DNA of 58,494 nt from Candidatus Zambryskibacteria bacterium RIFCSPLOWO2_01_FULL_39_39. Its GTDB lineage: Bacteria > Patescibacteriota > Minisyncoccia > Phycocordibacterales > WO2-35-19. The stretch is taken from assembly GCA_001823925.1 (NCBI GenBank), contig MHWB01000002.1:2376-60869 (forward strand), written 5' to 3'. Below are positions 12,189 through 21,828 of this stretch, one piece after another. Positions within the stretch are counted from its first letter, which is position 1. Every line of letters starts with the position of its first letter. Made by a program: the position numbers and the translations under genes. The notes under the pieces are model-generated. The model was not told the DNA's origin. It was given only the letters and a program-made list of their open reading frames with translations, and ran no database searches.

Positions 12189-13355
12189 ATGAAAAAAATA
12201 TTATATAGCGCAGGATTGATTGTTTTCGTAGCTGCTTTAGCTCTAGGTGCGACAGGTGCCTTCTTTAGCGACAGCGAAACTTCAACAGGCAACATTCTTA
12301 CTGCTGGGGCGATTGATTTACAGATAGACAATGAAAGTTACGTTACAAGCACAACCACAGGATTATTGGTGGCAAGTCCTAATACAACTTGGACAATGCG
12401 TAACTTAACGGTTGAGAAGTTTTTTGACTTTGAAGATATAAAGCCGGGAGATATTGGCGAGGATACTATATCTCTACACGTAGATAACAATGATGCTTAT
12501 CTTTGTGCAGATGTAACACTTACATCAAACAATGAGAACACTCTTGTTGATCCAGAGTCAGACGATGGAGATGATACAACTGGCACAAATGGAGGTGAGC
12601 TTGCACAGCAAGTAAACTTTGCTTGGTGGGCAGATGATGGGGATAATGTTTTAGAAGAAGGTGAAAATTTATTACCAGGCGGTCCTCTTGGAAACCTTGC
12701 AATAGGAGCGACAACAACTGTTACTCTTGCTGACTCTGTTTCTAACATTTGGACAGGACAAGGTGGTCCAATCCCAGGAGCTTCTACAAGATATATTGGT
12801 AAAGCCTGGTGCTTCGGTACGATTACACCAGCTCCAGTAGCTCAAGATGGTTCTGGAAATAATGGTGAAAATGGTCCTTTGGATAGAGGTACAGGATTTA
12901 TTTGTGACGGCTCTCTTGCAAACAACACAGCTCAAACAGATAGTTTGACTGCAGACGTTGCATTTAGAGCAGTTCAGTCTAGGAATAATAGTAGATTCTT
13001 GTGTACTCCAAGCACAGCTCCTGAAACAGCAACAGTAACACTCGACAAAGTTGTTACATTTACAAATCTCGCAGTTGCTGGAGTTGACGTAAGTGACTTC
13101 ACACTTCACTTGGTCGGCCCTGGTGGTGACCATGTATTGATTGATCAGGTTCCATTTCCAGGTCTTACTCCAGGAGCATATGTTGTATCTGAGGTTTACT
13201 CAGGTGATCCAGCTAATGCAACCTCTACAGTAATATTTAGTGGTAGTTGTACAGAAATTGGAACTACAGACACAGCAACATTTAATGTAGTTTCTGGTGT
13301 AAATCCAACCTGTACAATCACAAACTCAGTTTCTACCACAACACCACAGCAGTAA
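12189..13355 (+). CDS. TasA/CalY-like protein with SipW-dependent signal peptide and C-terminal Ig-like domain
   Basis: Signal ...GATGA|FFSDSETSTGNILTAGAIDL; DIKPGDIGED core motif. Confidence 0.85.
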   Translation: MKKILYSAGLIVFVAALALGATGAFFSDSETSTGNILTAGAIDLQIDNESYVTSTTTGLLVASPNTTWTMRNLTVEKFFDFEDIKPGDIGEDTISLHVDNNDAYLCADVTLTSNNENTLVDPESDDGDDTTGTNGGELAQQVNFAWWADDGDNVLEEGENLLPGGPLGNLAIGATTTVTLADSVSNIWTGQGGPIPGASTRYIGKAWCFGTITPAPVAQDGSGNNGENGPLDRGTGFICDGSLANNTAQTDSLTADVAFRAVQSRNNSRFLCTPSTAPETATVTLDKVVTFTNLAVAGVDVSDFTLHLVGPGGDHVLIDQVPFPGLTPGAYVVSEVYSGDPANATSTVIFSGSCTEIGTTDTATFNVVSGVNPTCTITNSVSTTTPQQ

Positions 13356-13371
13356 TTAATTACCTAATTAG

Positions 13372-14604
13372 ATGAAAAAGATATTACTTAGTCTTGGGTC
13401 CATACTTTTCGCAGGGGCGATCCTTGCGGGCGCAACGAGTGCGTTTGTTATGGATACAGAAAAAAGTACTGGTAATACTTTTGCATCCGGAGTTATAGAT
13501 CTCAAAGTAGATAACGAAAGTTATGTGACGGACGAGAATGGAAAGTTGGTTTTCAGTCCTTCTACTTCTTGGGACCTCTCGGGACTGTCAGGGAAATTGT
13601 TCTTCAATTTCCTTGACATAAAGCCGGGGGATATCGGAGAAGATACAATAAGTCTCCATGTAAACAACAACAATGCTTGGGCTTGTATGAATATAAATCT
13701 TACAAGCACTCCAGAAAATGGAGTAAACGAGCCAGAGGGGTTGGTAGACAATACAGTCGGCCCAAATCAAGGAGAGTTGCAAGAACATCTTTACTTTGTT
13801 TTTTGGGCAGATGATGGAGACAATGTGTATGAAAAAGGAGAAAAGATATTCAAAAAAGGTTTGTCCAAAGATATATTCAACGGTGAGCCTTGGACACTGA
13901 CAGATTCAGAGACAAGTATTTGGGCAGGAAGTTCTGGTTACGCCTATCAAAATGGTAGCTGGAAATACAATAATACTTGCAGAAACGGTGATCCTATACC
14001 GGGAGGTTCTACTAAGTTTATAGGCAAAGCATGGTGCTTTGGAGATATAAACGAGAATCCTCTAAATCAGGATGGTAAAGGCAAAACCCCTTCGAATTCC
14101 TCAGGACAAGTGGACAATGGTCCACTTGTGAGAGGTACAGGATTTGTCTGCGAAGGCAGTGATGTGGGGAACATCGTACAGAGTGATGGTATTGGATTGG
14201 ACGTAACATTTACTGCAGTCCAATCTAGGGGCAATGAGAATTTTGTGTGTGGCGATGAAGACGAAGGAGAAGGCGGTAACGAATATTGCTCTCACGGATA
14301 CTGGAAGCAAAAGCAACACTTTGATAGTTGGGTAGGCTTCGGCCCTAATCAACAGTTCTCTTCTGTTTTTGAAAATGCTTTTCCAGGAAAGACCTTGTTG
14401 CAAGTATTGCAACTTGGAGGGGGAGGGCTAAATAGGCTCGGAAGAGAGACAGTGGGTGCACTCCTTAATGCGGGTTCCGTAGACTTCCCTCTTACCCAAG
14501 CTGAAGTTGTGAGTATGTTTAATACAACATACCCAGGCTCTCTAGACTCTTATGACACACTAACAGAAATGTTTGCTCTACCTGAAAGTTGTCCATTAAA
14601 TTAA
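13372..14604 (+). CDS. TasA/CalY-like protein with SipW-dependent signal peptide and a distinct C-terminal (GYWK..LLNA) domain
   Basis: ATSA|FVMDTEKSTGNTFASGVIDL; same KPGDIGEDTISLHV, WADDGDNV and GKAWCFG core as its neighbours. Confidence 0.85.
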   Translation: MKKILLSLGSILFAGAILAGATSAFVMDTEKSTGNTFASGVIDLKVDNESYVTDENGKLVFSPSTSWDLSGLSGKLFFNFLDIKPGDIGEDTISLHVNNNNAWACMNINLTSTPENGVNEPEGLVDNTVGPNQGELQEHLYFVFWADDGDNVYEKGEKIFKKGLSKDIFNGEPWTLTDSETSIWAGSSGYAYQNGSWKYNNTCRNGDPIPGGSTKFIGKAWCFGDINENPLNQDGKGKTPSNSSGQVDNGPLVRGTGFVCEGSDVGNIVQSDGIGLDVTFTAVQSRGNENFVCGDEDEGEGGNEYCSHGYWKQKQHFDSWVGFGPNQQFSSVFENAFPGKTLLQVLQLGGGGLNRLGRETVGALLNAGSVDFPLTQAEVVSMFNTTYPGSLDSYDTLTEMFALPESCPLN

Positions 14605-14627
14605 AAAATTAATTCCCCGGAAATTAA

Positions 14628-15998
14628 ATGAAAAAAATATTATTAAGCTCATTTCTAATACTCTTTGCTGTATCCAGCCTTGTGCTCGGAGGTACTGGCG
14701 CATTCTTCTCTGACACCGAAACCTCAAGTGGAAACACCTTTACTGCGGGAGCAATAGATTTGAAAATAGATAACACGAGTTATTACAACGGAGTGTTGAA
14801 CCAAGGTACTACGTGGTCTCTCACCGATCTTACGGACCATCTCTTTTTTGACTTTGACGATCTAAAGCCGGGTGACATTGGAGAAGATACGATCTCAATA
14901 CATGTAGACAATAATGATGCATATGTATGTGCAGAAGTTACTCTCACAAGTAATGAGGAGAATGGTATCAACAACCCAGAAGCAGAGGATCAAGATATAA
15001 CAGAAGGCCCAGGAGAAGGTGAGCTCGCTCAAAATGTAAACTTTATTTGGTGGGCGGACGATGGCGACAATGTTCTTGAGGGTGATGAGAATATAATCTC
15101 ACAAGGTCCTATAGGTAATTTGCCTCTAAACCAGCCATACACAGTTGCTCTTGCTGATTCAGGGAGCAATATATGGACTGGTATCGGTGGTCCTGTAGCA
15201 GGGAGTGATACAAAGTATATTGGCAAAGGTTGGTGCTTTGGAAATCTTTCCGTCACGCCAGTTGTGCAAGATGGAGCCATAGTTGACACAAATCCTGCAG
15301 ATGGCATACCGGATAATGGCCCAGATGCGCGAGGCGCGGGGTTTAGCTGTGATGGATCTCTTTTGGACAACACTACCCAAACAGACCTACTCACTGCTGA
15401 TATAAAATTTAGCGCAGTACAATCAAGACATAACCAGGATTTCCTTTGTGTACCAGATAAACCTCCAGTTGCTTGCGAGTTGACAGAGACTTATGCCGAT
15501 GAAGTCGCCTCTAGCGATCAAGGTTTGCGCAAGAACAATACTGCAGTAACCGCAGATAGGAGTGATACTTCTTATGCTCTAGGAGCTCCGCAGAGCTCGG
15601 GTACTCCTTATGATGCTCCAGTTGTAGCAAATTCCTTCTTCTCGCTCGGATTTCCTCTTCTTGGAAACATGGCGGAGATAATACTTTCATTCAATGACAA
15701 CTTTGTTGTAGATGGTCCGGGGAACGATCTAAAACTTTGGGAGGTGACTGGGGGTACAAGCTATCCGGATGAAAAAGTAGATGTATATGTTGGGGATTCA
15801 ACTGTTGGTCCGTGGACACAGGTAGGCGATGATGTAACCCGAGACGCAGAGATAGATCTATTTTTGGCTGGGGTGAGTCAAGCTCGCTATGTGCGCATAG
15901 TAGATGCAAGCAACCTTGCTTTATTTGAGGCTACTGCCGATGGTTACGACCTAGATGCCGTGCAAGCTCTAAATTGTATTCAGAGAGCAGAAGAATAA
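14628..15998 (+). CDS. TasA/CalY-like protein with SipW-dependent signal peptide and C-terminal beta-sandwich (discoidin/galactose-binding-like) domain
   Basis: GTGA|FFSDTETSSGNTFTAGAIDL; shared core; C-terminal DGPGNDL..ARYVRIVD..DGYDLDAV. Confidence 0.85.
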   Translation: MKKILLSSFLILFAVSSLVLGGTGAFFSDTETSSGNTFTAGAIDLKIDNTSYYNGVLNQGTTWSLTDLTDHLFFDFDDLKPGDIGEDTISIHVDNNDAYVCAEVTLTSNEENGINNPEAEDQDITEGPGEGELAQNVNFIWWADDGDNVLEGDENIISQGPIGNLPLNQPYTVALADSGSNIWTGIGGPVAGSDTKYIGKGWCFGNLSVTPVVQDGAIVDTNPADGIPDNGPDARGAGFSCDGSLLDNTTQTDLLTADIKFSAVQSRHNQDFLCVPDKPPVACELTETYADEVASSDQGLRKNNTAVTADRSDTSYALGAPQSSGTPYDAPVVANSFFSLGFPLLGNMAEIILSFNDNFVVDGPGNDLKLWEVTGGTSYPDEKVDVYVGDSTVGPWTQVGDDVTRDAEIDLFLAGVSQARYVRIVDASNLALFEATADGYDLDAVQALNCIQRAEE

Positions 15999-16037
15999 TT
16001 CTAAGATTCTGCAAATTCCATAGTTTCGCAAAATTAG

Positions 16038-17162
16038 ATGAAAAAGTTATTCAAAATCCCATACTATTTTCTTGTTGTAGGAGTTGCTTCCATAGGTTTA
16101 CTTTTGCTTGCAACTCTTTTACCAATACCCGGCAACTTGAGAGTAAAGATTGTAAAGTCGGGTTCTATGGAACCAGCCATAAAGACTGGAGGACTTGTCT
16201 TCATAAGAGAAGCTTCTAGTTACAAAATGGGAGATGTAATAACATTCGGGCAAGATACCAAGACCCAGATCCCAACTACCCACAGGATTATAGAAGAAAG
16301 TGGGGAGGGTGCTTCAAAAACATTTACTACCATGGGAGATGCCAATGATGCTCCAGATCCCAAGGAAGTAGGAGTAGGGGAGATAAGGGGTAAAGTAATA
16401 TTTTCGCTTCCTTATGCTGGGTACATACTAGATTTTGCAAAGAAGCCTATGGGGTTTCTGCTACTTGTGGGTGTGCCAGCTCTTATTATTATCTTTGAGG
16501 AGTTAATAAAAATTTGGAAAGAAATAAAAAAAATAAGAAGAAGAAAAAATGAGGAAGCCCTAGAGTATGTTTCAAGTGAGGCTTTACCAATAGAATTGGA
16601 AAGAAATGTTCAATCAGTGTATAGAGAAGGTAATGTGCTAGATTTGCGGGCTAAATTTGAACAAAAATCTAGAGAGGGTTTGTCTTTCAGGAGAAGAGAC
16701 ACTTCAGACTTTGGACTCAAAGTTGTGAGTATTCTTCTCTTGGCCATAGTCCCTCTCCTCGGTTTCGGTAGTGTGGGTAGTACTGTTTCTTACTACAACG
16801 AAAGCGAAGTCTCTCTCGGTAATATTTTGCAAGCGGGTAGTAATTATAAAAATTTTACAGAGAATAATCTGAGGGTGAATAATGATGAAGAGGTTGTACT
16901 TGGAGTTTCTGTTGAGACCTCTCTCTCTGAAGTTTCGGAAGATCTAGCACCTAGTGAGGTAGAAGAAAATAAAATTGAGGAAGAATCAGAAGAACAGGTT
17001 GTAGAAGAGAGTGAAGAAGTCGTAGAAGAAGAACTAAATGAAGAAAATACTAACACAGAAGTAGAATTAGAAGACACCGAAGATGAAAACGTAACAGAAA
17101 GTAATGCAGTAGAGGAAGAACAAGAAATAGTGGAGCCGACTCCGGTAACAATTTCAGAATAG
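16038..17162 (+). CDS. sipW: SipW-type (ER/archaeal-type) signal peptidase I with a long C-terminal extension
   Basis: VKSGSMEP (Ser), THRI (His), TMGDANDAPD; extension has an extra hydrophobic segment, a SipW-like cleavage motif and a Glu-rich tail. Confidence 0.88.
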   Translation: MKKLFKIPYYFLVVGVASIGLLLLATLLPIPGNLRVKIVKSGSMEPAIKTGGLVFIREASSYKMGDVITFGQDTKTQIPTTHRIIEESGEGASKTFTTMGDANDAPDPKEVGVGEIRGKVIFSLPYAGYILDFAKKPMGFLLLVGVPALIIIFEELIKIWKEIKKIRRRKNEEALEYVSSEALPIELERNVQSVYREGNVLDLRAKFEQKSREGLSFRRRDTSDFGLKVVSILLLAIVPLLGFGSVGSTVSYYNESEVSLGNILQAGSNYKNFTENNLRVNNDEEVVLGVSVETSLSEVSEDLAPSEVEENKIEEESEEQVVEESEEVVEEELNEENTNTEVELEDTEDENVTESNAVEEEQEIVEPTPVTISE

Positions 17163-17191: not shown

Positions 17192-17223
17192 ACCCCGTTA
17201 GAATTTAATATTTCTAGCGGGGT
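17192..17223. repeat. Palindromic element downstream of sipW
   Basis: ACCCCGTTAGAA-8nt-TTCTAGCGGGGT. Confidence 0.65.
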
Positions 17224-17256
17224 TGACATTTGGTGAACAGTGATTAGAATTCCATA

Positions 17257-17358
17257 TACATAAAACCCAGAATGGGTGCTAGATCACTCCCGTGATCCTG
17301 AGTTTATCGAAGGATTTTACGGGATTTCCCCGATCCAGCGCCCATTCTGGGTTTTTTG
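17257..17358 (+). ncRNA. Candidate structured small RNA (long hairpin)
   Basis: TTGACA(17223)-16nt-TAGAAT upstream; arms AAAACCCAGAATGGGTGCTAGATC / GATCCAGCGCCCATTCTGGGTTTT with a nested stem; ends in a T-run. Confidence 0.35.
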
Positions 17359-17555
17359 GAATTCAGATAAGACTTCTTTAATGACATAATTATAACAAAC
17401 TAAAGTCAATTTAAGCAATTCACATCTGGGTGTTGACATCGCTACCGATTCTTCTAGGATGAAAGTGTTACTAGAGTGGTCTTCTTTTGGGGAAAAGGAG
17501 GGCAAAATGAAGACGGTAATGTTTCCCCATTTTTTCGCACAAAAAAATAATTTGT

Positions 17556-17656
17556 CAAACAAAGTAGCCGCTTCGCGAGAGATTTCGCTTGAAGCGGCTA
17601 TTTTGTTTGGTCGATACTTCTCCGCTTCAGAGCTTATGCATACTGAAGCGGGGAAG
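17556..17656. repeat. Two tandem hairpins sharing CCGCTTC...GAAGCGG arms
   Basis: 17556-17609 and 17617-17656, upstream of the repeat-protein cluster. Confidence 0.6.
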
Positions 17657-17694
17657 GAAAAATAATTTATTAAAAATTAATTGTAATAAAAGAT

Positions 17695-18327
17695 ATGAAA
17701 AAATTTATAGCTTTTGCTTCGGCCGCAGCCTTTTTGGTTTCAGCCGTTCCTGCTTTGGCTTTTGGCGGATTTCATTTCTCATCATCTGATCTAGATATAG
17801 ATGTTGATGTAGACAATGATGCGTACGTCAAAAACGATGTTGACACTACCGCTTCAACGGGAGGCAATACTTCAACGGGTGGCAGTGCTCGCAACAGAGT
17901 CAGTGGAGGCAATGTTGACAATACTGAAGCCAACGGCGGAGATACTGGGGATATAGATACTGGGGACGCTTTTGCCACAACTTATGTTACTAACACTGTC
18001 AATAGCAATGACATTGTAGTTCGAAGTGATTGCGGATGCCGAGGTGAGGCCGATCTTGATGTTGATGTAGACAATGATGCTACTGTAAAGAATTATGTTG
18101 ACACTAAGGCTAAAACAGGTCACAACGACTCTGTGGGTGGTAATGCTTCTAACAAAGTAAAGAGCAACTCCTCACACAGCTATCATCATTGGTTTGGTGG
18201 AAGCAACAGCGTTGACAATACTGAAGCCAACGGCGGAGATGCTGGTGAAATCACAACAGGTGATGCTGATGCCTACTCTGATGTTGTAAACGTTGTAAAT
18301 ACCAACGTTGTTCGAGTACGCAGATAA
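17695..18327 (+). CDS. Secreted Asn/Asp/Thr/Gly-rich repeat protein (two A-B repeat units)
   Basis: Sec signal (..VPALA); duplicated DVDVDNDA..V.T.A.TG.N and VDNTEANGGD.G.I.TGDA; exact DNA duplications 17800-17822/18058-18080 and 17914-17943/18211-18240. Confidence 0.8.
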   Translation: MKKFIAFASAAAFLVSAVPALAFGGFHFSSSDLDIDVDVDNDAYVKNDVDTTASTGGNTSTGGSARNRVSGGNVDNTEANGGDTGDIDTGDAFATTYVTNTVNSNDIVVRSDCGCRGEADLDVDVDNDATVKNYVDTKAKTGHNDSVGGNASNKVKSNSSHSYHHWFGGSNSVDNTEANGGDAGEITTGDADAYSDVVNVVNTNVVRVRR

Positions 18328-18350
18328 TCTGCATTTGTTCTTTTTGTTAA

Positions 18351-18442
18351 CTCCGACAAAATCGTCGGAGCCGAAATCTGTCTGTCATCTGACGGACGGA
18401 CTTCGGGCTAAGCTAAGTTCATCAGCTGATGAACTTAGCTTA
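18351..18442. repeat. Cluster of three adjacent palindromes
   Basis: CTCCGAC..GTCGGAG; CCGAA.TCTGTCTGTCA-TC-TGACGGACGGA.TTCGG; TAAGCTAAGTTCATCAG|CTGATGAACTTAGCTTA. Confidence 0.75.
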
Positions 18443-18451
18443 TCCGGAGAT

Positions 18452-18826
18452 ATGAAAAAATTTATAATAGTTTTAATTACCCTTTATGCATTACCGACTT
18501 TTGTCTTGGCTGATTCTACTAATGTTGTAAATAATGTTACCACTTCAGTTTCAACGGGTGGTAACACAAGTGATGGGGTGGTGACAGAAGGTCAAAGCAA
18601 AGGAAGTGTCAAGATTTACACTGAAGTCAATGGTGAAGTAGTAGAAGATTTCCAAAAAGAAGTAAGTGGTGAGAAGCAAATTAATTATGAAGTGAGCAAT
18701 GAATTTGAGGGAGGCAGGGTAGAAACAAAGGTAGAAGTAAATGGAAATGTGTCAAAGGCGCCCTTTGACACTTTACAAATGTTTATAAAATATGTAAAAT
18801 ATGTATTTTCATTCTTTAAATTTTAA
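18452..18826 (+). CDS. Small secreted protein with one partial TGGN repeat
   Basis: ATG 18452 preceded by GGAGA; signal MKKFII...VLA; NVVNNVTTSVSTGGNTS. The longer ORF start overlaps the previous gene and the palindromes. Confidence 0.7.
   Translation: MKKFIIVLITLYALPTFVLADSTNVVNNVTTSVSTGGNTSDGVVTEGQSKGSVKIYTEVNGEVVEDFQKEVSGEKQINYEVSNEFEGGRVETKVEVNGNVSKAPFDTLQMFIKYVKYVFSFFKF
18745..18772. repeat. REP-like palindrome (RAYT-associated family) inside a CDS
   Basis: AAATGTGTCAAAGGCGCCCTTTGACACT, 27/28 identical to 33097-33124. Confidence 0.85.
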
Positions 18827-21293
18827 TAGATACAAAATAACCAAAGTCGCCTTTTCAGTATTTTTGGTGATAGGTATTTTAAATTGGGCTTTTATGCCGG
18901 GTCTTCTTACTTATGCCGAAGAAGAAGTCCCTGCAATTGAAATTGCGGTAGTAGAAACTCCCTCAGCCCCAGAAGTTGTTGTACCGAGTGAGGTGGTTAT
19001 TGAAACTGGAGATGCGGTTTCTCAATCTGAAATTCAAAATGATGCTAACACTCAAGAAATAACTACTGAAGCGCAAAATTCAGGACAAATAGCTCCCCAA
19101 AGTTCAGAAAATAATGAGGTAAGCACTTCTGTTTTAAATATTGAAGGTCAAAATGAAGCAGAAGTACAAAATACAGCTACCACCACTGCAGAGACTGGAA
19201 GCAATAATGCCGAAGGTGTCGCCACCACGACGATAACAACAGGTGATGCAGTCGGAAATGTTGACGTGGTTAATTTGGTAAATACAAACATTGTTGATTC
19301 TAGCGGTAGTATTATAGCTGGTGGCGCTTCTTTGGGTGGTTCGTCTTTAGATTTGCGCGCAAACTTCGCAAGCACTACAGCAAGCACTACTTGCCCATTA
19401 TGCCTCAGTGATATTTCGATAGAGAATCAAAATAATGCAACGGTTACAAATAATATAATCGTATCGGCCGAAACCGGAGACAACAATGCTTCTAGCACAG
19501 GTGCTGGAATAATTAGAACCGGCGATGCTTTTGCCGGTGCTAATGTGGTAAATATCATAAACAGCAATATCGTCAAATCAAACTATATGCTTTTGGTTTT
19601 TAATAACTTTGGCGATTGGTCTGGTGATTTGGTTTTCCCCAATAGCGATTTTTTTGCAAATTTGTTTTCCAATTTTTCTTCTGGTTGTATTACTTGTAGT
19701 GGCGACACTTACCTTTCAAATAGTAACAACGCTAATGTTTCAAACACAGTTAATACTTCAGCAGAGAGTGGCGATAATACTGCCTCTGGAGAAGGGACTT
19801 CTATAAACTCAGGAGAGGCTCTGGCATCTTCAAATGTTTATAACCAAGTCAATACAAATGTTTATAATAGCGCATCTTTTTATCTCCTAATAAAAGTTTT
19901 TGGTGATTGGGGTGGCAATATATTTAATTTACCAGAAGGGATCGTCTGGCGTGAGACACCAAAGGGTATCGTCCTTTATAATGAAGCAGACGGCAATCCG
20001 TTGGAAAGTGAAATGCAGCCTTTGGTTGGAGGAGGGGAAACTTCAATTCAAAATACCAACAGTGCGGATGTTGTAAACAATATTAATGTCAGTGCTACTA
20101 CAGGAAACAATAATGCTCTTGGCGATGATGTTTCTATTCAGACGGGCAATGCTTATGCTGGGTCTAATCAGGTCAATATAGTCAATACCAATGTGGTAAG
20201 CAGTAACTGGACGAGGGTTTTAGTAAATATATTTGGCAACTGGCAAGGCAACATTTCTTTTGGAGAGCCAGATTTATGGATAGGTACGGTCGCAGAATCT
20301 TCGGGCACTTTGGTTCCAGGTTCTTCTGTTAAATTTACAACCACTATAAAAAATAATGGTGACGCTACCGCAAGTGGTATTAAGGTCTTGGCAGAACCAG
20401 AATTTCCTTATTTGGATATTGATGGAAATAATGAATGGATACTTAGTCCACTTTTGGCTGGAGAGTCAACGGAAATCTCTTATAGTGGCTCTATCTCTAG
20501 GAGCATGCCTTTGGGGGCTATTCCAATACAAAATACAGTTTCGGTATCTTCGTTTGAAACAGATGGCAATATGGAAGACAATACTGATGTTATTGATTTA
20601 GTCGCTTATAATTATTCAGGACCAAGAGTTCGGCCATCTCATGTTTCGCGCACATCTACATACCCTAATTTGGAAGTGACAAAAACCCATACTCTTAAAA
20701 GCGCTGTGGGTATAAATGGGGTAGAAATGGTGCCATTTCTCGGCTCGGCTGATTATAAAATAGTAGTTAAAAATAATGGAGGCTTGGCTTATGAAGGGCT
20801 ACTTGTGGATCAACTTAAAAATGAAGCTGGTGAAATTATAAATGAACAGACTTGGGACCTTGGCAAGATTTTTGCAAATGAAGAAATTGTTATTACTTAT
20901 ACTACTGAATTTACTGCGAGCACCACTCCGGGTACTTACACCAACTATGCTTGGGTGGAAGCTTTGGGGGGAGATTATTCTTATAACCCCAAACTAGCCT
21001 CAAAAACTATTTCAAATATGGCGTCAAGTACCGTTGTGGTTGCAGAGAAACCAATCGTTTTAATTGTAGAAGAACAAGTGAAGGCTTTGGGTGAAGTTTT
21101 GGGATTGCTTATCGAAGATGTATCGGCAGTGGGGGAAGAACAATATGTGGAATTTCTTGGAGGTTTTTGCAGAGAAGAGAGCGGGGATAAAATGAAAACC
21201 CTAAGTGTTTCTCAAAGCATTCTCTTGGGTCTCTCATTTATCCTTATCGTACGAAAGAAAAAGTATATTCCTACTAATTTGTTTATGATCTAA
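18801..21293 (+). CDS. Large surface protein: TG(D/N) repeat region, DUF11-like Ig domains and C-terminal membrane anchor
   Basis: Four A-B repeat pairs plus an extra B; ..V.FTTTIKNNG..A and NLEVTK..YKIVVKNNG DUF11-like segments; terminal SILLGLSFILIVRKKK. Confidence 0.75.
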   Translation: MYFHSLNFNRYKITKVAFSVFLVIGILNWAFMPGLLTYAEEEVPAIEIAVVETPSAPEVVVPSEVVIETGDAVSQSEIQNDANTQEITTEAQNSGQIAPQSSENNEVSTSVLNIEGQNEAEVQNTATTTAETGSNNAEGVATTTITTGDAVGNVDVVNLVNTNIVDSSGSIIAGGASLGGSSLDLRANFASTTASTTCPLCLSDISIENQNNATVTNNIIVSAETGDNNASSTGAGIIRTGDAFAGANVVNIINSNIVKSNYMLLVFNNFGDWSGDLVFPNSDFFANLFSNFSSGCITCSGDTYLSNSNNANVSNTVNTSAESGDNTASGEGTSINSGEALASSNVYNQVNTNVYNSASFYLLIKVFGDWGGNIFNLPEGIVWRETPKGIVLYNEADGNPLESEMQPLVGGGETSIQNTNSADVVNNINVSATTGNNNALGDDVSIQTGNAYAGSNQVNIVNTNVVSSNWTRVLVNIFGNWQGNISFGEPDLWIGTVAESSGTLVPGSSVKFTTTIKNNGDATASGIKVLAEPEFPYLDIDGNNEWILSPLLAGESTEISYSGSISRSMPLGAIPIQNTVSVSSFETDGNMEDNTDVIDLVAYNYSGPRVRPSHVSRTSTYPNLEVTKTHTLKSAVGINGVEMVPFLGSADYKIVVKNNGGLAYEGLLVDQLKNEAGEIINEQTWDLGKIFANEEIVITYTTEFTASTTPGTYTNYAWVEALGGDYSYNPKLASKTISNMASSTVVVAEKPIVLIVEEQVKALGEVLGLLIEDVSAVGEEQYVEFLGGFCREESGDKMKTLSVSQSILLGLSFILIVRKKKYIPTNLFMI

Positions 21294-21309
21294 ATTATGT
21301 TATAATAAT

Positions 21310-21828
21310 TTGGTGAAAAAGCTTAGAGAAATTACGAGGTTAAAAATAGCCATTGTTTGTTTACTTATTTTGGCTATTTCTATGGGAACTATTTCTCCCC
21401 TTAGGGTAGCAGTCTTTGATTCCCTCTCGGCCATTTATGCTAGCGTTTTAGTTACTCTGACCAATCAAAATAGAGTAAATAGTAATGTCCCGGAACTCAA
21501 AGTAAGTCCAATTTTAGAAAAAGCGGCCCAAATGAAAGCCGATGATATGGCGACTAGAAGCTATTTTGCACACAACACACCAGAAGGGCGGACACCTTGG
21601 TATTGGTTTGAAAAAGCAGGTTATAAATATGTATATGCAGGAGAAAATTTGGCTGTTAATTTTGAAGAAAGTGCTGATGTAGAAACTGCTTGGATGAAAT
21701 CCAAAGGCCATTTTTTAAATATAATGAATCCCAAATTTAAAGAAATTGGTATCGCCACCTCTACTGGTATCTATAAAGGTAAGCAAGCCATCTTTGTTGT
21801 TCAGATGTTTGGCGCTCCATCTAAGTAA
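21310..21828 (+). CDS. CAP (SCP/PR-1) domain protein
   Basis: LTNQNR, AAQMKADDM, YFAH, AGENLA, AWMKSKGH..NI, EIGIA, VQMFG. Confidence 0.93.
   Translation: MVKKLREITRLKIAIVCLLILAISMGTISPLRVAVFDSLSAIYASVLVTLTNQNRVNSNVPELKVSPILEKAAQMKADDMATRSYFAHNTPEGRTPWYWFEKAGYKYVYAGENLAVNFEESADVETAWMKSKGHFLNIMNPKFKEIGIATSTGIYKGKQAIFVVQMFGAPSK

Follow-up and report, generated by a model that had tools for sequence, protein, structure and literature searches.

A candidate surface-assembly cassette of Patescibacteria whose proteins share a previously undescribed beta-strand repeat

What might three neighbouring genes, whose exported products share a repeat, build at the surface of a patescibacterial cell? The question is raised by a 58,494-nucleotide stretch of contig MHWB01000002.1 from Candidatus Zambryskibacteria bacterium RIFCSPLOWO2_01_FULL_39_39 (an 800 kb genome in 13 contigs, 98.9% complete), which we refer to throughout as the window, and in which the genes p210, p124 and p830, named for the length of their products in amino acids, follow one another on the forward strand. 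Patescibacteria account for much of bacterial diversity, and their cultivated members live attached to other cells; to our knowledge, few surface structures are known for them. We give an even chance to the reading that the three genes belong to a lineage-specific cell-surface assembly cassette of Patescibacteria, in which like-with-like beta stacking would produce an anchored fibre or short appendage. The genes, and the parts of p830 on which the argument leans, lie as follows (window coordinates, with the kind of evidence in brackets).

17695..18327, + strand: p210 gene, small secreted protein of 210 amino acids (unit profile)
18452..18826, + strand: p124 gene, protein of 124 amino acids (hhalign and alignment of relatives)
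18801..21293, + strand: p830 gene, large and putatively anchored protein of 830 amino acids (profile, motif and hydropathy)
18996..19067, + strand: orphan B half-unit of p830, residues 66-89 (unit profile)
19074..20273, + strand: four full A-B units of p830, residues 92-181, 196-274, 299-374 and 408-491 (unit profile)
20298..20591, + strand: best DUF11 stretch of p830, residues 500-597 (PF01345)
21195..21254, + strand: C-terminal hydrophobic helix of p830, residues 799-818, followed by a basic tail (hydropathy scan)

An earlier note, made from the letters of the DNA alone, had proposed that these proteins share a repeat in which a motif A alternates with a motif B. Applied in loosened form to the six-frame translation of the whole 58.5-kb window, the two motifs gave 11 matches, all of them (11/11) inside the p210 and p830 genes, against 5 matches across 2000 shuffles of p210, p124 and p830. 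A profile of the A-B unit, which we built iteratively from sequences of the family, agrees with the motifs. It finds two units in p210 (residues 30-111 and 117-209) and, in p830, four full units (independent E-values, i-E, of 2e-19 to 2.3e-27) together with a partial match to the B part only at residues 66-89 (i-E 7e-4), which are the numbers of units that the note had counted. Its three FG(D/N)WxG(D/N) spacers in p830 (residues 270, 367 and 478) and the short Cys pairs between repeats (CGC at residue 113 of p210; CPLC at 198 and CITC at 296 of p830) were likewise recovered. The note erred over p124, to which it had allotted only half of A: the protein aligns instead to the whole first unit of the small family (hhalign probability 96.8%, E 2.8e-10, over 65 columns), holds the A core and a degenerate B in the alignment of its relatives, and gives one weak unit with the profile (residues 22-78, i-E 9.5e-5). 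No Pfam or NCBIfam model covers the A-B repeat in the window proteins that we searched, and in the literature on surface proteins, amyloids and envelopes of Patescibacteria, or candidate phyla radiation (CPR), we found neither the repeat nor the cassette described. As judged from sequence, the products of the three genes are thus built on one previously undescribed beta-strand repeat.

The bare form of the repeat is seen in p210, which comprises a signal peptide of the ordinary Ala-x-Ala type rather than one with the SipW-type motif, two A-B units linked via CGC, and a C-terminus reading RVRR; it matches zero Pfam families at E≤0.1 and no NCBIfam model. An exhaustive search returned 1856 representative clusters of this small family at E≤1e-3 and 920 at E≤1e-10. 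Among 177 small-family proteins, the last B lies at most 12 residues from the C-terminus in 150, CxC is present in 144, and 65 end in exactly R[IV]RR. Right after the signal-peptide cleavage site, small proteins also show a brief run enriched in Trp, Phe and His (residues 23-30 of p210). None of 130 small-family members matches a relevant Pfam family, Curlin_rpt included, at E≤1, while 12 of the 130 match a glycine-rich low-complexity model, and a sequence search of the PDB, FapC entries included, gave nothing at E≤1 except one chance row. A protein language-model atlas returned only clusters without names, all from candidate phyla, and outside these phyla held nothing above a template-modelling (TM) score of 0.22 for the large protein. 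The named relatives of the window proteins are Giovannonibacteria, Zambryskibacteria, Paceibacterota and Kaiserbacteria, all of them Patescibacteria.

The large protein, p830, carries the same unit in a different setting, with a signal/anchor helix, an acidic linker and the orphan B, four A-B units interspersed with FGxWxG spacers and Cys pairs, DUF11 domains, a C-terminal membrane helix and a basic tail, in that order. A consensus of 111 large proteins retains the orphan B motif. The DUF11 domains and membrane anchor named in the note were both found: PF01345 matches two stretches (E 2.6e-8, 34.6 bits vs a cut-off of 24.6) and is the sole Pfam family of p830 at E≤0.1, and hydrophobic stretches lie at residues 13-39 and 799-818, with the basic tail after the second. 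The same arrangement of helix and basic tail is present in the closest relatives. For the repeat region we found more than 599 relatives, typically 40-45% identical; most of those listed carry DUF11, PG_binding_1 occurs in 22 of the 120 listed, and in many a peptidoglycan-binding domain stands in place of the membrane helix. Hydropathy places N-terminal hydrophobic export signals on all of p210, p124 and p830, and LPxTG occurs neither in their translations nor in the C-terminal 45 residues of 40 relatives. The layout of p830 suggests a wall- or membrane-anchored surface protein made of a repeat body, a DUF11 stalk and an anchor. Some distant large proteins (P0058, P0061, P0063 and others) have no terminal membrane helix and end instead in a tail that is amphipathic, aromatic and basic.

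In p124, a signal peptide and the one degenerate A-B unit are followed by a conserved C-terminal tail, amphipathic and aromatic, which resembles that of the distant large proteins and on that account suggests a membrane-proximal role. The distal cap that the note had made of p124 is doubtful for the same reason. The protein matches no Pfam family at E≤0.1, and of its 33 relatives every taxon-named one is from Patescibacteria. We also considered that p124 might supply the A strand that completes the orphan B of p830, and found this unsupported, as the orphan B is present also in loci with no detected p124-like gene.

Do the genes belong together outside the window? Small and large proteins were found in the same 8 of 41 relative genomes, and either one alone in 0 of the 33 others. 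We inspected 24 loci besides the window, made up of a set of 7 and a set of 17 from metagenome-assembled genomes (MAGs). A large-type gene lies downstream of a small-type gene, on the same strand, in 7/7 loci of the first set and in 16/17 MAG loci, and at the 17th MAG locus the match falls within the large gene itself. A p124-like gene sits between the two in 13/24 loci, and a gene of the CAP family, such as follows p830 in the window, lies directly 3' of the large gene in 10/24 (4/7 and 6/17 MAG loci). Across an even, phylum-wide sample of 301 genomes, large-type genes were detected in 25 and the small profile in 22, with 16 genomes in common, and at least nine distant genomes of this sample have the small and large genes side by side. 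The three genes thus form a conserved cassette, and the lack of synteny elsewhere, which the note had named as a refutation, is not what was found. The cassette is a widespread but patchy accessory feature of Patescibacteria. On one Parcubacteria contig (L031:535-7328), two small-large pairs stand in tandem.

The A-B module is also found joined to other domains. VWA precedes it in P0245 (E 7e-17) and P0283 (E 3.5e-16), DUF642 precedes it in P0293, and P0266 has an F5/8-C (discoidin-like) domain that scores under the Pfam cut-off. In one cassette (L032, 4927-7801), genes for a PA14 protein and an Ice_binding-like protein (PF11999, E 3.7e-22) lie upstream of a bare small gene, and in each of these two proteins the domain is followed by a single A-B unit with the same basic C-terminus. 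A metagenome scan that used a VWA-fused relative as query brought up nothing beyond one ordinary small protein and a VWA match that is unrelated.

We used structure prediction and residue covariation to examine the unit itself. AlphaFold2, given 111 relatives, modelled residues 100-500 of p830 as four equivalent all-beta units, with a predicted local distance difference test (pLDDT) of 88.3 and a predicted template-modelling score (pTM) of 0.86. In each modelled unit, strand A is 20-21 residues long, and after it come two short strands, strand B of 11 residues and more strands through the FGxWxG spacer; short helices and Cys pairs lie between units. Since the pTM of 0.86 extends over 401 residues, the units are predicted as one rigid body and not as beads on a string. 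Modelled alone with 28 sequences, p210 reached a pLDDT of 59, too poor for a structure search.

For 957 distinct units (an effective 857), direct-coupling analysis gave its top long-range couplings at positions 13-51, 19-45, 24-39, 7-56 and 9-54, pairing A with B in antiparallel order. The coupled positions are the conserved Asn, Val and Ala, all on one face of each strand. Covariation of this kind shows a predicted antiparallel contact between the A and B strands of a unit, made through their conserved Asn/Val/Ala faces. A two-unit version of the analysis was dominated by equal positions of neighbouring units, as in-register stacking would have it; however, non-neighbouring units gave an equal value (0.85 vs 0.85), and so we regard this signal as an artefact of shared ancestry that is uninformative on stacking.

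The modelled fold was compared exhaustively with 48,161 solved chains, 3 of which reached Z≥2. The best structural match was the amyloid protein FapC (Z 4.7, root-mean-square deviation 3.3 Å, 127/150 residues aligned, VIA-align), a weak one, short of the Z of 8 from which the tool counts a match as meaningful. Foldseek gave FapC at E 1.1 and CsgA (8c50) at E 1.7 and TM 0.07 against the PDB, both non-significant, and no match at E≤0.001 against viral models, and the sole return of a second structure aligner was 4qrk (Z 3.4). As modelled, the repeat fold appears to have no clear counterpart among solved structures.

How would such proteins fit together? In the arrangement that we propose, p830 would be an envelope-anchored base that presents its A-B body outward, and the bare two-unit p210 would extend that body through like-with-like beta stacking to give a fibre or short appendage. 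Paralogues in which VWA, PA14, discoidin-like or DUF642 domains are followed by one or two A-B units would rely on this module for mounting adhesive heads; p124, with its degenerate unit and amphipathic tail, is probably an initiator or assembly helper at the membrane, and the Cys pairs between units may lock the assembly. The presence of one module on a bare subunit, on adhesin variants and on an anchored base follows the logic of pili and curli, and it is for this reason that we favour an anchored fibre. The division of labour foreseen in the note fits the conserved cassette and the fusions when read as one of subunit, adhesin and anchor; its weak point is the cap. A more specific version of the anchored fibre, which we put forward tentatively as a possibility, is a new fibre confined to Patescibacteria, in which wide cross-beta units (antiparallel pairs of ~20-residue strands) would stack from an anchored nucleator into an amyloid-like filament, with optional VWA or lectin heads for host attachment and with the operon under an RNA of its own, described below.

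Several results weigh against the anchored fibre. Modelled alone, p210 gives low confidence (pLDDT 59); the resemblance to FapC is weak (Z 4.7 < 8), with no PDB match at E<1 in Foldseek; the in-register stacking signal failed its non-neighbour control; and the cassette is accessory, present in 8/41 relatives and in 25/301 genomes of the phylum sample. In addition, the small proteins have an invariant basic C-terminus and, once mature, an N-terminus rich in aromatics, which could act as edge caps and block stacking, and the repeat region of p830 is modelled as a self-contained body that would need no partners. Such a body, predicted to be finite, rigid and of four units, would suit a display scaffold, the main rival, in which there is no polymerisation and secreted A-B proteins dock on the p830 platform once or a few times, in the style of dockerin and cohesin. 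The joining of A-B modules to varied cargo domains, the strict co-occurrence of small and large proteins and the conserved charged C-terminus point the same way. However, by far the commonest form is the bare two-unit protein, which has no cargo and no obvious use on a scaffold, and a repeat common to the scaffold and to what docks on it speaks for like-with-like stacking; we therefore hold a display scaffold to be doubtful. The low confidence of p210 can also be read as the mark of a strict functional amyloid, one special form of the anchored fibre in which p210 would leave the cell unfolded and p830 or p124 would nucleate it into cross-beta fibrils that bind dyes and resist sodium dodecyl sulfate (SDS). 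An amyloid would be in keeping with the Asn, Val and Ala conserved on one face of each strand, with best structural matches, weak as they are, to FapC and (non-significantly) to CsgA, and with the division of labour among the genes. Against this, by sequence the proteins belong to none of the curlin, Fap, chaplin and TasA families, the Z for FapC is only 4.7, the coupling test for parallel in-register stacking failed its control, and no chaperone-like or inhibitor-like gene was recognised, so that we consider a strict amyloid unlikely.

The geometry and surface chemistry of the unit invite two further explanations. A predicted unit that is long and flat with one conserved face, in a family whose members have peptidoglycan-binding or membrane anchors, might tile a two-dimensional, S-layer-like envelope coat instead of projecting as fibres; but a main layer would not be expected in only 8 of 41 close relatives, and the adhesin-fused variants suit appendages better, which leaves a coat quite improbable. 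The regular Asn/Thr arrays on flat beta faces, and the one cassette paralogue with an Ice_binding-like domain (E 3.7e-22), would be in keeping with independent secreted binders of polysaccharide, mineral or ice that are co-regulated and do not co-assemble. Without physical cooperation, however, it would be hard to account for strict pairing in a fixed order across lineages with proteins only 30-45% identical, and this explanation seems to us very improbable indeed. An anchored fibre thus stays our favoured reading of the cassette.

The DNA upstream of p210 is of interest in its own right. A 530-nt spacer, which separates p210 from a SipW-type signal peptidase gene, shows nucleotide-level conservation across six genomes, and it contains the first four of the following features; the fifth lies within the cassette.

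17223..17250, + strand: promoter-like site TTGACA-16 nt-TAGAAT, directly 5' of the structured RNA (consensus match)
17262..17358, + strand: conserved structured RNA heading the cassette, with a long hairpin, an unpaired GUUUCCC and a U-tract (covariance)
17433-17460, + strand: second promoter-like site, preceding the second leader block
17481..17657, + strand: second conserved leader block of three helices, one of them terminator-like (six close loci)
18410..18441, + strand: perfect 12-bp hairpin between p210 and p124 (read from the sequence)

The first promoter-like site agrees with the consensus at 11/12 positions, both of its hexamers are invariant in the six-genome alignment, and the RNA hairpin lies eight bases after it. 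In an alignment of 18 RNA sequences, gathered with a model of the same structure, which favours that structure, both partners have changed in 19 of 23 pairs and pairing holds in 92.8% of cells, a level reached by 0/500 shuffles and compared with at most 57.9% in slid controls. Of 26 sources searched with a covariance model, 18 have the RNA, which lies 290-490 nt ahead of their first A-B gene (copies include L014:9866-9961, L016:8534-8625, L021:6630-6719 and L022:7468-7545, among others). Of the 8 relatives with the cassette, 7 have it, and the 33 that lack the cassette gave a single weak match. A broader RNA model matched 0/150 genomes of the phylum sample, and Rfam holds no family for it, the best overlapping rows having E 0.39-0.45, far under the gathering cut-offs. 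This distribution, together with the covariation, points to a structured RNA specific to cassette-bearing genomes of this order and makes it a candidate for a new regulatory RNA family. We know of almost no regulatory RNA families described in this phylum. As a dedicated upstream element, the RNA would control or stabilise the cassette transcript.

Across six close loci, 12 of the 44 pairs predicted for the second leader block (17481-17657) are compensatory, and its exact motifs occur only in those six places. One of its helices is terminator-like and another encloses a Shine-Dalgarno-like GGAGG and an AUG. A short reading frame that begins MFPxFF is kept at the start of the block, and it is not in frame throughout. 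A GGGGAAA arm of the block is complementary to the exposed GUUUCCC heptamer of the upstream hairpin, which suggests a regulatory pairing between the two.

Two features within the cassette may bear on the relative output of its genes. The perfect hairpin at 18410-18441 lies between the p210 stop codon and the p124 ribosome-binding site, a position from which it could determine how much subunit is made relative to the products encoded downstream. The 3' end of p124 overlaps the start of p830 by 26 nt in a different frame (18801-18826), and an overlap of about 26 nt between a p124-like and a large gene is seen again at L016:11311-11336, L017:6297-6322 and L018:9444-9469; a recurring overlap of this kind suggests translational coupling.

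The cassette is flanked in the window by further genes.

12189-13355, 13372-14604 and 14628-15998, + strand: three camelysin/TasA-like genes (family profile matches)
16038-17162, + strand: SipW-type signal peptidase gene (family profile match)
12189..17162, + strand: overall span of this TasA-like/SipW cluster
21310..21828, + strand: gene for a CAP/YkwD-like protein, putatively membrane-anchored (PF00188)

A 456-aa product of the upstream cluster passes the cut-off of PF12389 (Peptidase_M73) and matches the SipW-type signal model TIGR04088, and a 410-aa neighbour falls just under that cut-off (22.2 vs 22.5 bits); none of p210, p124 and p830 has a Peptidase_M73 match. TasA-like genes are near the cassette in 4 of the 24 other loci, one upstream and three downstream, with SipW in 3 of the 4; all four cases come from the 17 MAG loci and none was seen in the set of 7. 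The adjacency to a TasA operon on which the note had remarked therefore holds in the window and recurs, but it is not general. Because the TasA/SipW genes recur in differing positions across lineages, a loose functional link is plausible, with the cluster outside the conserved core and part of a surface-structure island. The SipW-type peptidase, of 374 aa, has a second hydrophobic stretch and a long Glu-rich C-terminal tail beyond its catalytic residues (21-173). Downstream, the CAP gene that the note had named is clearly present (PF00188, 70.2 bits vs a cut-off of 21.1, E 3.5e-19), and its product scores 98.6 bits with the YkwD subfamily model, below the cut-off of 171.

By virtue of its adhesin-head variants, the cassette is a concrete candidate for how some Patescibacteria hold hosts or surfaces. 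If p210 does polymerise, it would represent a new class of bacterial functional fibre, in sequence and in structure, and would offer a compact and genetically simple building block for biomaterials.

It remains to place the cassette among known surface fibres. In curli, the major subunit CsgA is nucleated by the membrane-associated CsgB, and the cassette is similar in that its secreted proteins are made up of strand-turn-strand repeats, imperfect ones with much Asn, Gly and Ala, and in that a short, putative major subunit and a cell-bound protein with a common repeat are encoded by adjacent genes. Unlike curli, neither the window proteins nor 130 family members match Curlin_rpt, and the A-B unit spans ~60-95 residues with a 20-residue strand, the curlin repeat being much shorter. 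No genes of the CsgE, CsgF or CsgG type were recognised among the open reading frames of the cassette, and the patescibacterial host has a single membrane, unlike the hosts of curli. The likeness to Fap is structural, FapC being the best, if weak, match to the A-B repeat region (Foldseek E 1.1). FapC is described as a stack of imperfect repeats with conserved Asn/Gln networks, in Greek-key layers of ~50 residues (PMC12392863); the A-B unit is larger than such a layer and has no sequence relation to it. With the TasA/TapA/SipW system of Bacillus the cassette would share the character of a surface-fibre gene set in a single-membrane bacterium, as far as its proposed fibre role holds. TasA homologues have been reported in Patescibacteria (PMC9245690), and TasA is a jelly-roll that assembles via donor-strand exchange (PMC9674648), whereas the A-B proteins have no Peptidase_M73 domain and p210 has no SipW-type signal motif.

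Among the systems compared are also the Pam pili (PamA, PamB), a recently solved CPR-specific filament whose single operon encodes a tip, a shaft and a membrane anchor, and whose pilins are Ig-like and assemble by donor-strand exchange with PapD-like chaperones (PMC13278184, which makes no mention of DUF11, TasA or solenoids). Compared by description, the cassette resembles the Pam pilus in operon logic and differs from it in fold. Sortase-built and chaperone-usher pili differ from the cassette in that it has no LPxTG, no Ig-like pilin fold, and no sortase or usher that we could recognise; what it would have in common with them is the placing of a VWA or lectin-like adhesin domain on a shaft-building module, and a base subunit dedicated to that shaft.

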